A stretch of 21,622 bases of DNA from a candidate division WOR-3 bacterium. GTDB lineage: Bacteria; Hydrothermota; Tepidihabitantia; Tepidihabitantales; DTDR01. Numbering within the stretch: position 1 is the stretch's first letter; the number at the start of each line of letters is the position of its first letter. Positions 2,124 through 20,999 of the stretch are shown piece by piece. Location: positions 1-21,622 of the forward strand of contig JBDRVN010000027.1 in NCBI GenBank assembly GCA_039801885.1. Direction: 5' to 3'. The position numbers and the translations under genes were made by a program. Below the pieces are notes generated by a model. It made no database searches. It was not told where the DNA came from and saw only the letters and a program-made list of their open reading frames with translations.

Positions 2124-2482
2124 CTAAAATTTACTTTAAAATATGTAATAGACTAAGACATCGTTACCGGTTATGTAAAGAAAATAACCAAAAGCATAAT
2201 AATCTGAAATAATAACTAAGGGCTTGGTGGAGAATAAATAAGATTCTAAAAGGTAGTATGAAAATATTATAAAACCAAAATATTTATTCAAGAAATTCTA
2301 AGATATTTAACCGGTTTCTTAGTTATTATTATAAACCATTATATTTCTTATTATTATCTTTTTTTTTTATAATTTTTAAAAACTAAATCCTATACTATCT
2401 CCTATACTGCTCCCTTTTTAATAGAAAGTAAAATCCCCTTGTTCTAATAAGATAGATTTTAGAAAATATATAAAAAAGAGAT

Positions 2483-2632
2483 TTATTTAAGTATTAAGTA
2501 AAGAAAAATCAATACCTTAGGCACCTCCTTTTTAGGTTTATCTTTTAGTAATTCTTTCTTAATCAAAATCCCAAAATCTAATACCCTCCTTATTCCATAA
2601 TACCGGTATTTTGATTTCCAAATTATCCCCAT
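2483..2632 (-). CDS. Putative leaderless small protein, 49 aa (not in ORF track): MGIIWKSKYRYYGIRRVLDFGILIKKELLKDKPKKEVPKVLIFLYLILK
   Basis: ATG 8 nt after the CGTA box of the repeat promoter. It shares start context, stop codon position and 11/16 C-terminal residues with ORF 20406-20657. Confidence 0.45.
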   Translation of the reverse strand: MGIIWKSKYRYYGIRRVLDFGILIKKELLKDKPKKEVPKVLIFLYLILK

Positions 2633-2640
2633 ATATATAA

Positions 2641-2666
2641 TACGAAAAAAGAGCCCCAAAGGTTAC
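2641..2666 (-). promoter_or_regulatory. ECF-sigma-like promoter GTAAC-N17-CGTA (repeat copy 1)
   Basis: Matches the generic ECF pattern (AAC at -35, CGT at -10). Boxes and spacing are conserved in copy 2. Confidence 0.55.
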
Positions 2667-2680
2667 CACTTTTTTATTAC

Positions 2681-2708
2681 TTGAAATTTAAATTCAAATT
2701 TCTATAAT
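2681..2708 (+). promoter_or_regulatory. sigma70-like promoter, leaderless arrangement
   Basis: TTGAAA 2681-2686, 16-bp spacer, TATAAT 2703-2708, 7 nt to ATG 2716, no SD. Confidence 0.65.
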
Positions 2709-4870: not shown

Positions 4871-7303
4871 ATGCAGGATAGATTTACCAATCGTTTAAGA
4901 AAAGTTATTAACATTGCCCGTCAGGAGGCAATTAGAATGCATCATGATTATATTGGTTCCGAACATTTACTTTTAGGAATTGTAAAGGAAGGCGAGGGGG
5001 TTGCGGCGTTAGTTTTATCCAATTTGGGAATTGAAAGAGACGAATTGATTTCGGCAATTGAAAATGCCATAAGTTATGGCAAAACTCCAATTATTTTAGG
5101 TGAAATTCCTTTAAATCAGGAGGCAAGGAGGATTTTAAATTATGCGATGGAAGAGGCGAGGAGGATGAACCATTCTTATATCGGTACTGAACATCTTTTA
5201 TTAGGAATATTAAGAGAAGACCAATCAGTTGCGGCCCAAGTTTTGTTCTCCTTAGGAATTGATATTGATATTGTTCGCAGCGAAATAATGAAGGTTTTAG
5301 AAGGCGAAACAGTTAGTCAATCTATTCCAAAAGGTAAATCTAAAACACCCGCTTTAGATTATTTCTCAAGGGATTTAACCCAATTGGCAAGAGAAGATAA
5401 ACTTGACCCAATTATTGGTCGAGAAAAAGAGATTGAGAGGGTTATCCAAATATTGGTTAGAAGAAAGAAAAATAATCCCGTTTTAATTGGTGAAGCCGGT
5501 GTTGGTAAAACCGCAATTGTTGAAGGACTTGCCCAAAGGATTGTTGAGGGAAGAGTTCCTTCTCTATTAAAAAATAAAAGGGTTTTGGCATTAGATTTAC
5601 CAGCCTTAATTGCCGGTACAAAATACCGAGGTCAGTTTGAAGAGAGAATGAAGACAGTGCTTAATGAGATAACGAAATCGGGCGATGTTATCATTTTTAT
5701 TGATGAATTACACACAATTGTTGGTGCCGGTGCTGCGGAAGGAGCGATCGATGCCTCTAATATTTTAAAACCGGCATTAGCAAGAGGAGAAATTCAATGT
5801 ATTGGTGCCACTACTTTTGAAGAATATCGAAAGTATATTGAAAAACATTCAGCATTAGAAAGAAGATTTCAGCCAATTATTGTTGAACCGCCATCCGTTT
5901 CTGAAACGATAAAAATTTTACAAGGTTTAAAAGAGAAATACGAATTACATCATGGGGTAATTTATACTGATGAAGCCTTAGAGGCTTGTGCTTATCTTGC
6001 TGACCGGTATATTACTGATCGCTATTTACCCGACAAAGCGATAGATGTGATGGATGAAGCCGGTGCTCGGGTAAAATTGTTAAGACCAGTTTTCAATCCT
6101 GATATTGAAGAATTGGAGAGAAGGATTGAAAGGGTAAAAAAATTAAAAGAAGAAGCAGTAAGAAAACAGGAGTTCGAAAAGGCAGCAGAAATCAGAGATG
6201 AACAGAGGAGGTTAACAGAATTTTTGAAGAGAAAGAGAAAGGAAATTGAAAAGAAAGGTGGTTTTCCGACGGTTATTCCCGAAGATATTGCTCAAGTTGT
6301 TTCAATGTGGTCGGGAATTCCTTTACAAAAGATTGAAGAGAGTGAACAACAGAAGCTTTTGAAAATGGAAGAGGAATTAAAGAAAAGGATTGTTGGTCAG
6401 GACCACGCAATTGAAGTAGTTGCCCAGGCAACGAGAAGAAGTCGGGCAGGAATTAAAGATCCAAGAAGACCAATCGGTTCTTTTATATTTTTGGGTCCTA
6501 CTGGCGTTGGTAAAACTGAATTGGCAAGGGTATTGGCAAGGTTTCTCTTTGGGCACGAAGATGCCTTAATAAGGCTTGATATGTCTGAATATATGGAAAA
6601 ATTTAATGTCTCAAGATTAATTGGTGCACCACCTGGTTATGTGGGTTATGAAGAAGGTGGCCAATTAACTGAGAAAGTGAGGAGAAAACCTTATTCAGTG
6701 GTTTTGTTTGACGAAATTGAAAAAGCCCATCCGGATGTTTTTAATATTTTATTACAAATTTTAGAAGATGGTCAATTAACCGATGCCTTTGGCCGGAGGA
6801 TCAATTTTAGAAATTGTGTGATTATAATGACATCAAATATTGGTACTGCGGAAATAAAGAAATCAAGCGGTTTTGGTTTTGCTTCAGTTAGTCCAGAAGA
6901 AAGTTATGAGAAGATGAAAGAAAGGATTTTAATGGAAGTGAAAAAAGTCTTCCGACCGGAATTTATTAATCGGGTAGATGAGATTATTGTCTTTAGGTCC
7001 TTAGGAAAAGAGGAAATGGAAAAGATTGTTGATATTCAGATTAATGATATAAATGAGAGATTAAAAGAGAAAGGTTTAAAATTGGTTTTATCTCCGGAAG
7101 CAAAAGAGGTTCTTGTTGAACAGGGCTTTGATCCGGAATACGGTGCCCGACCATTAAAGAGAGCAATAAGAAGATTGATTGAAGACCCCTTAGCCGAAGA
7201 GATATTAAAAGGAAAATTTAAAGAAAGTTCTATTGTCTATATTGAAAGGGAAGGAAACGAATTACGTTTTGTTGCCAAAAAACCAGAAGAACTAAAAGTT
7301 TAA
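4871..7303 (+). CDS. clpC: ATP-dependent Clp protease ATP-binding subunit ClpC
   Basis: Two Clp-N repeats (EHLLLG), Walker A motifs GEAGVGKT and [11 protein letters not shown]-like middle domain ([11 protein letters not shown]), GYVGY pore loop, ClpP-docking 'FGF' loop, 810 aa. Confidence 0.95.
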
Positions 7304-20331: not shown

Positions 20332-20371
20332 GAGTGTTGAATAAGAGCTTATTAAGTTAATAAAAAAAGTG

Positions 20372-20397
20372 GTAACCTTTTGGGGTCTTTTTTCGTA
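20372..20397 (+). promoter_or_regulatory. ECF-sigma-like promoter GTAAC-N17-CGTA (repeat copy 2)
   Basis: GTAAC 20372-20376, CGTA 20394-20397; same spacing as copy 1. Confidence 0.55.
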
Positions 20398-20405
20398 TTA
20401 TATAT

Positions 20406-20657
20406 ATGGGGAGAGTAGAATTAAAAGGATATATTATAGTAATAGATTGTTATCCAAGGGTTGATAAATATACCATTATTAATCCTATGGGCAATTTCAA
20501 AATAATTACAAAGGAAGGCTATTTATCTTTTTACAATTATAATTTCCAAATGGTTTCTAACGATTATTGGAGAAAGGGGTTATTAATTTTAATAAGAAAC
20601 AAATATAAAAAGGAGGTGCTTAAAGCCTGGTATTTTCTTTATTTAATAACTAAATAA
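20406..20657 (+). CDS. Putative leaderless small protein, 83 aa, paralog of 2483-2632
   Basis: 83 open codons in very AT-rich DNA; C-terminus KKEVLKAWYFLYLITK* matches KKEVPKVLIFLYLILK* of copy 1. Confidence 0.45.
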   Translation: MGRVELKGYIIVIDCYPRVDKYTIINPMGNFKIITKEGYLSFYNYNFQMVSNDYWRKGLLILIRNKYKKEVLKAWYFLYLITK

Positions 20658-20971
20658 ATATCTTATTTATATATTTTCTAAAATCTGTATTAATAAAACA
20701 GGAGGATTTTACTTTCTATTGAAAAGGGAGCAGTATAGGAGATAGTATAGAATTTAGTTTTTAAAGATATAATAATTTGAGAAAACTATTTTAAAATGGA
20801 TAAAGATTTCTTTTAAATCTTTTGAAATAAATAAGTTTTGCTTTTGAATGATTATTTTAGTTTTATGATGGTTTTATACTCTGGTTTAGAATTCCTTTTA
20901 TTTTTAGGTTAATTATTATAAGTAAATTTGTTAAGATAGGGTTTTCAAGATAGATAAGAATATAAGATTTT

Positions 20972-20999
20972 TTGACTTTTGATGATAATTTATTATAAT
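20972..20999 (+). promoter_or_regulatory. sigma70-like promoter of gcvT, leaderless arrangement
   Basis: TTGACT 20972-20977, 16-bp spacer, TATAAT 20994-20999, 6 nt to ATG 21006, no SD. Confidence 0.7.

Follow-up and report, generated by a model that had tools for sequence, protein, structure and literature searches.

Paired micro-ORFs in a WOR-3 genome are probably decaying copies of a chromosomal gene homologous to archaeal filamentous virus capsid proteins

Near either end of a 21,622-nt stretch of DNA from a candidate division WOR-3 bacterium (the window, meaning the whole stretch analysed here) lies a micro-ORF that shares most of a short C-terminal tail with its counterpart and differs from it in length and N-terminal sequence, raising the question of what these two ORFs are and why their tails stay recognisable. 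The window is contig C27 of a 1.55-Mb genome of 70 contigs and 31% GC (the source genome, G000), DNA of which is present in hot-spring metagenomes, with at least half of the sampled words found in 2 runs and 3 studies represented overall. Translation places the first micro-ORF, W1, on the minus strand at 2632..2483 (49 aa; ATG at 2632, stop at 2485-2483) and the second, W2, on the plus strand at 20406..20657 (83 aa), a length difference of 102 nt, and direct reading of the sequence finds ATGGGG 8 nt after CGTA in both. The 16-residue tails are identical at 11 positions, with two synonymous (AAG/AAA and TAC/TAT) and five non-synonymous codon differences. All of this except the strand of W1 had been described in the first-pass annotation, and its view of the two ORFs as paralogues is also borne out, both lying within one inverted repeat with ~18 kb between its copies (arms 2372-2551/20589-20768, 85%, and 2626-2675/20363-20412, 96%). 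Searches of W1 and W2 against Pfam, PHROGs, NCBIfam and PADLOC returned nothing, the window gave no match to Rfam at the gathering threshold and no tRNA or tmRNA with ARAGORN, and the one run labelled metatranscriptomic contributed a single 151-nt contig, which lay outside the ORF.

The N-terminal parts, which had been called poorly alignable, are not random, as they align to the profile of a full-length gene, here termed gene B: residues 6-46 of W1 correspond to profile positions 62-102 (E 5.7e-7), and residues 38-82 of W2 to positions 56-104 (E 2e-5). In an intact cassette on contig C2 of the source genome, gene B (105 aa) follows gene A (120 aa), with the stop of A overlapping the start of B and a ribosome-binding site preceding A; the longest copies, in C2, C40 and C14, all have two genes. 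The C-terminus of gene B is the same tail as in W1 and W2, and this fixed tail corresponds to the start of the last helix of a helical-bundle protein. W1 is a gene B derivative with an internal deletion, W2 is a shortened derivative of the same gene, and other copies are shorter in-frame fusions, of 28 aa in C9, 31 aa in C41 and 12 aa in loci L077 and L082. A and B are themselves paralogous, with a BLASTP E-value of 0.005 between them and matches of A genes from other families of the order to the B profile (E 1e-7 to 1e-12), while an hhalign comparison of A1 with A2 was weak (E 0.065).

Across 43 cassettes from five species of the window's genus, the longest ATG-initiated ORF on the cassette strand fills 63% of the space between the promoter-like module and the 3′ core, compared with 6.7% on the reverse strand and 21% in 200 shuffles (maximum 27%). 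Coverage of at least 70% was reached by 16 of the 43 cassettes, by none of 43 on the reverse strand and by a mean of 0.175 in the shuffles (maximum 2), in a count that skipped 8 of 51 paired elements with unmatched anchor patterns. Since the coverage exceeds that of both the shuffles and the reverse strand, the family is coding in origin. The small-protein family proposed earlier is thus a real paralogous protein-coding family in which frame-preserving length changes are typical, but the membrane, toxin or leader role attached to it is not supported. Taking these observations together, we consider it probable that W1 and W2 are gene B copies, from a small self-promoted cassette, that carry internal deletions and are decaying.

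The W1/W2 cassette is present in ~20-28 copies in the source genome, each opening with a promoter-like module of two blocks, continuing with one or two small genes and closing with a 3′ module that is conserved and unstructured. BLASTN within this genome returned 28 rows with the 5′ module as query and 24 with the 3′ module, several of them at contig ends, and nhmmer returned 73 and 57 hits, respectively, over the same genome and 45 fetched loci, four sister species being covered. As expected of a multi-copy repeat, summed contig depth in one DNA run was ~20 in the flanks, 148 at the 5′ module and as much as 327 at the 3′ module. The DNA repeat is present in four of the five other species of the genus, and 35 genomes from the order's other families gave one marginal match.

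The 5′ module consists, in order, of an A-tract, GTAACC, 15 variable nucleotides, TCGT and a TATATAT run. Upstream of W2 it occupies 20357..20405 on the plus strand, with GTAACC at 20372-20377 and, after the 15-nt spacer, TCGT at 20393-20396, and it ends at the ATG (the nhmmer hit spans 20357-20411); upstream of W1 it lies on the minus strand at 2627..2684, with GTAACC at 2666-2661 and CGT at 2644-2642. A loose regular expression for the module hit the source genome 25 times, 24 of these within the cassette family, and the pattern GTAACC-N17-CGT is found in 24 cassette copies. Its position and conservation suggest a promoter. ECF-sigma promoters have a −35 'AAC' and a −10 'CGT' 16-17 nt apart and often stand before the sigma gene itself; the layout of the module recalls this consensus, and the predicted promoter possibly uses an ECF-type sigma factor. 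The source genome encodes five sigma-70-family genes, three of them of ECF size. Two candidates were set aside: an autoregulated ECF sigma gene, as the motif is absent from the 220 nt upstream of all five sigma genes, and a sigma-54 reading of the module, as conservation does not extend to the −12 GC.

The same promoter-like module also precedes other small genes in the source genome, at the ends of contigs C36, C44, C47, C50 and C59 and within C12 (37051-37267), C13 (34300-34864) and C33 (~20035-19500). One such gene encodes a helix-turn-helix/excisionase-like protein of ~79 aa and is present in at least five copies that break the assembly; after it come GGTGATTTTT iterons, an ORF of 57 aa and small proteins in which 'NNNTFIN' motifs recur. 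A larger mobile element may share the promoter-like module.

The 3′ module starts in the last 16 codons and extends ~95 nt beyond the stop to a 25-nt motif, which contains two AGTATAG units 12 nt apart and occurs 22 times in the source genome and never in three shuffles. Its non-coding part covers 20658..20750 on the plus strand after W2 (terminal motif 20726-20750) and 2390..2482 on the minus strand after W1 (terminal motif 2414-2390). RNAalifold on 46 aligned copies gave no consensus RNA structure for the 3′ module on either strand (−1.6 and 0.0). The module may be a protein-binding DNA site. Solo terminal motifs (GGGGGAA.AGTATA...-like) also stand directly after gene ends without the rest of the cassette, in loci L094/L095 of G004/G003, which are orthologous to window positions ~2100-2700, and at C28:19304, C4:39657 and C5:38200 of the source genome, which suggests that the motif is able to persist or act alone.

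This anatomy bears on the function first proposed for the micro-ORFs, namely membrane-associated or type I toxin-like peptides, leader peptides, or translation as a means of controlling the downstream RNA. Small ORFs with a promoter-like element of their own, a short hydrophobic tail and many copies per genome would suit such a role, but the translations of W1 and W2 hold a hydrophobic C-terminal stretch of only ~10 residues, too short for a membrane span, and the remainder is basic and lysine-rich. Neither alternative hairpins nor a consensus structure nor, by scan, a terminator-like site was found to accompany a leader peptide, and the gene downstream of the cassette is not a consistent one, being co-oriented in 10 of 22 cases and convergent in 12. 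PADLOC, Pfam and PHROGs likewise gave no match. We therefore regard a toxin or leader function as exceedingly improbable.

The short ORFs show no codon-level purifying selection. Eleven orthologous pairs between the source genome and either G005 or G001 were aligned, and pN/pS was calculated on seven, leaving out C31/L052 and C19/L046 for a shifted or broken frame and two further pairs truncated at contig ends. Over these seven pairs, a small sample of 98 differences, pS was 0.099 and pN 0.070, a ratio of 0.71, and the differences fell almost evenly over the three codon positions (30/36/32); the W1 orthologue in G005 (L044) carries eight, distributed 1/4/3. The flanking glmM-like, gcvT-like and 706-aa genes have ratios of 0.137, 0.118 and 0.341, with third positions dominant and pS of 0.24-0.32.

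Such evenness, or orthologue conservation that is not codon-periodic, would also be expected if the ORFs were incidental and the intergenic repeat had a regulatory or structural role exerted solely at the level of DNA or RNA. The tail stretch AAAAAGGAGGT is almost invariant in the DNA of the 46 aligned copies, third positions included, which fits the same explanation. Against it stand the protein-level homology to a gene conserved across the order, the lack of a consensus RNA structure on either strand and of an Rfam match, and the mixed orientation relative to neighbouring genes, and we consider purely incidental ORFs very unlikely.

The start codon does not behave as a family trait. The ORFs had been described as leaderless, yet only 13 of the 43 longest ORFs begin at the ATG in question, and a single subfamily has an ATG at the predicted transcript start, lost or broken in three G005 copies. 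The G005 orthologue of W2 (L041) is without ATGGGG and starts at an SD-led ATG that is ATA in W2. The ATG at the predicted transcript start would then be a by-product of mutations where other copies have a ribosome-binding site. As for stops between this ATG and the conserved TAA, none occurs early in the eight source-genome copies that have the ATG, five of which run to the homologous TAA, but the frame is broken in two other copies, ending after 3 codons in L052 and after 13 codons in L047 (read by eye).

More serious is the possibility that the short ORFs are functional small proteins, for example capping, poisoning or regulating the assembly of A and B, and that this is why they persist. 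In favour of this, ORF coverage of the stretch from promoter to 3′ module is far higher than chance would give, in-frame deletions have occurred repeatedly (C9, C41, L077 and L082), and L043 carries two single-base indels, 25 nt apart, that together restore the frame. In addition, the promoter-like module is, by eye in the alignments, the best conserved part between orthologues, and the last helix is kept in all short forms. The ORFs are open more often than simple decay predicts, which leaves room for selection on translation or on short peptides. The pN/pS ratio and the even spread of changes over codon positions speak against a kept peptide, however, as do the truncated or frame-shifted state of about half of the G004 copies and the reading of supposedly fixed residues in other frames, that is, of the tail in the orthologues C31/L052 and C19/L046 and of the 'fixed' KKEVL motif in L043. 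A cassette of the source genome next to PurH, described below, has lost every ORF. We judge functional peptides unlikely, though the likeliest of the alternatives, and prefer to regard the short copies as gene B remnants that would have no peptide function.

Orthologous sites in related species record both the gain and the collapse of cassettes. The W1 and W2 cassettes sit at the same sites in the sister species G005. The segment carrying W2 (20337..20965) is present in G000 and G005 and absent from the same intergenic site, between the glmM-like and gcvT-like genes, in G002, G003 and G004, where the downstream gene's native promoter and the two flanking genes adjoin directly; this sigma-70-type promoter, TTGACT-N16-TATAAT (20972-20999), is conserved in G000, G002, G003 and G004. 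At the W1 site, the intergenic region of G004 is ~431 nt shorter and lacks the cassette, and that of G003 aligns only from the cassette's 5′ edge onward. The locus adjacent to PurH carries the full A-B pair in G002 and G004; in G000, both flanks align and 8 nt without any ORF stand in place of 760 nt in G004, and G001 and G003 have 12-aa ORFs in cassettes with near-identical downstream flanks. The empty and filled sites, together with the collapse at PurH, indicate that cassettes arrive at new sites and then collapse between conserved ends. As to how they move, we found no transposase and no clear terminal inverted repeats, and the one filled/empty junction examined closely, that of W2, has no clear inverted ends and a direct repeat of 9-10 nt that is doubtful. 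Also within the segment missing from G002-G004 is a stretch at 20769-20965, reaching ~200 nt past the terminal motif, which is ~98% identical between G000 and G005, above the conservation of the ORF, and contains a TATAAT box and an AU-rich 8-bp hairpin near 20813-20833 (approximate positions).

In the scheme we favour for W1 and W2, cassettes ordered as promoter-like module, gene A, gene B and 3′ module would be gained at new intergenic sites and would later shrink by internal deletions, often frame-preserving, in the interval from the promoter to the 3′ module. The last helix of B, which forms the fixed C-terminus, would remain recognisable because the deletions spare the ends of the cassette and not because of selection on the peptide. 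MITEs, Correia and BOX elements are non-autonomous intergenic repeat elements of bacteria, and the cassette resembles them in its tens of intergenic copies, its presence or absence between close species, its internal promoter and its modular build with conserved ends and a variable middle. It differs from them in that the junction examined showed neither terminal inverted repeats nor clear target duplications, in having a decaying protein gene as its middle, and in that one locus has been shortened in place by deletion and not by transposition.

What, then, are the intact proteins? The two paralogues A and B are homologues of the archaeal filamentous virus (Adnaviria) major capsid proteins. 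The sequences of A and B from the source genome give nothing significant in Pfam, PHROGs, NCBIfam or PADLOC and no usable hit in the ESM Atlas, their profiles find only chance-level rows among PDB sequences, and a scan of IMG/VR with the B alignment found no relative. AlphaFold2 models, built from 9- and 8-row alignments, are all-helical with pLDDT of 73.6 and 75.2, and their best Foldseek matches are capsid proteins of archaeal filamentous viruses, with probabilities of 0.92-1.0 and weak E-values of 0.03-1.1. A fold comparison of B scored 12.1, 12.0, 11.0, 10.5 and 10.5, with the next score at 6.9, and a viral model library agrees with the capsid matches. The predicted models also have the N-terminal helix arm and C-terminal four-helix bundle of the SIRV2-type fold.

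Sequence profiles connect the same families. Gene A of the source genome matches PF12193, 'Sulfolobus virus coat protein C terminal', at E 0.044; the best match in the window's genus scores 24.7 bits (G002), and no protein of that genus reaches the Pfam cut-off of 25.2 bits. A search of 1.84 billion proteins with the B profile found 10, one of which (P0027) scores 36.6 bits on PF12193. Prediction of the A+B complex fell into the class 'weak support', with a score of 0.52 against 0.00 for the best of three controls. Of 157 solved complexes, 116 reach the mark that it passed, as do 2 of 215 mismatched pairs; passing scores of 0.60 or below account for only 18 of the 157 solved complexes and for both passing mismatches. 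The runs agreed in at least 0% of contacts, with a partner pLDDT of at least 63, and a pass could also reflect the model's memory of solved capsid dimers. By analogy with their viral relatives, A and B may bind each other and DNA. No title or abstract listed by the literature search dealt with homologues from bacteria or other cells; bacterial members of PF12193 may already appear in InterPro-type listings.

The distribution of these genes extends across the order. The A profile matches 64 of 66 genomes of the order, including all 45 that are of high quality, covers all 26 genera and gives 1-27 matches per genome, and among 201 sampled genomes of the phylum it is positive in 35, namely all 34 of the window's order plus the source genome, and in none of the 166 others. 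PF12193 has matches at E ≤ 0.01 in 50 of the 66 genomes, rises above its cut-off in 24 of the 66, and matches none of 14 control genomes; among the PF12193 places listed, 14 fall on genes also found by the A profile when the two tables are compared. PF21660 gives weak matches in 3 of the 66 genomes, none above the cut-off. Word-indexed protein searches returned eight relatives each, understating the family, and six-frame profile searches were needed. L107 and L109, two distant relatives from metagenomes, have the A-B pair, as do family f4 and the window's genus, and one family of the order has single-gene loci whose gene matches both the A and the B profiles.

The loci are chromosomal, flanked by housekeeping genes (PurH, Clp ATPases, aldehyde dehydrogenase and others) and syntenic within genera; no gene neighbours conserved across genera were seen, and no other virus-like or virion genes lie beside the capsid-like loci. 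Given this chromosomal housekeeping context and the lack of virion genes, we call A and B bacterial capsid-protein homologues and not a virus. A ClpB/ClpC-type ATPase gene (window 4871-7303) lies within ~2 kb of a capsid-like locus, and another is directly beside such a locus at L117 and L121, in two genomes of another genus, which may be chance. In G020, a capsid-like gene is directly preceded by an ECF-sized sigma-70-family gene (177 aa; L124, 3324-3854), and a second, weak A-like ORF lies farther upstream; this sigma gene may point to the factor that recognises the cassette promoter.

The cassette also invites comparison with type II toxin-antitoxin cassettes, which it resembles in its two small genes with overlapping stop and start, its one promoter and its several, often decayed copies. 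It is unlike them in that A and B are mutual paralogues with a capsid-protein fold and match no toxin or antitoxin family in PADLOC or Pfam.

The realm Adnaviria is defined by the SIRV2-type capsid fold, which is unseen in other known viruses, and only archaeal hosts are listed for it (PMC12282232); a passage of a 2024 review describes adnavirians as apparently unconnected to the viruses of bacteria (PMC10848233). Rudiviruses have one capsid gene, and the other Adnaviria families have two paralogous genes whose products form MCP1/MCP2 heterodimers (PMC12282232). We compared the WOR-3 proteins with the major capsid proteins of Rudiviridae (SIRV2/SSRV1), Lipothrixviridae and Ungulaviridae (AFV1/SIFV/SFV1) and Tristromaviridae (PFV2), and with the families PF12193 (Sulf_coat_C) and PF21660 (MCP_C). 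Like the viral proteins, they have a predicted fold of an N-terminal helix arm and a C-terminal helical bundle, and relatives in the order lie above the PF12193 cut-off. The two adjacent paralogous genes correspond to the arrangement in the non-rudiviral families, and the single-gene loci elsewhere in the order to that in rudiviruses. By contrast, the WOR-3 genes reside among housekeeping genes in bacterial chromosomes and not in linear archaeal virus genomes, are present in many copies that are mostly decayed fragments, carry a bacterial-type promoter-like module of their own and have no virus-like genes adjacent.

At three loci outside the window's genus, the A-B genes are followed by arrays of 12-nt or 6/12-nt periodicity. 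The array of L107 (6467-6655), directly downstream of the pair, comprises 15.8 copies by TRF of the 12-nt consensus GGGTGATATAGA; that of L109 (~1436-1650) is likewise directly downstream of the pair, and that of L127 runs from ~+84 to +300 after a B-like gene. Their spectral power is 8.1-9.9, where the 95th percentile of controls is 3.49. They are the 3 positive loci out of 18 tested, among which the 11 single-gene loci are all negative and one of four in-genus loci falls just under the line. Downstream of 60 cassette ends in the window's genus there is no 12-nt periodicity, with a mean power of 0.82 versus 0.89 in controls. A passage of the PFV2 study gives 12 bp of A-form DNA as the length covered by one capsid heterodimer (PMC7189273). 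The array period equals this footprint, a suggestive match in period and not evidence of binding, and on the strength of that equality the arrays could be nucleation sites for the encoded proteins.

As probable gene remnants, W1 and W2 should not be annotated as toxins or leader peptides. The wider finding is that homologues of a capsid protein whose SIRV2-type fold is a hallmark of Adnaviria occur in 64 of 66 genomes of one bacterial order, which is unexpected. We tentatively propose, with rather less than even confidence, that an order of hot-spring WOR-3 bacteria carries chromosomal, self-promoted, multi-copy homologues of Adnaviria capsid proteins, single or as A/B pairs, which may be domesticated DNA-wrapping proteins with a chromatin-like or heat-protection role, the footprint of a bacterial branch of the realm, or the long-sought cellular relatives of the fold, with the 12-nt arrays as possible nucleation sites. 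Such genes would make a long-standing question testable, namely where this capsid protein came from and what it can do outside a virion.
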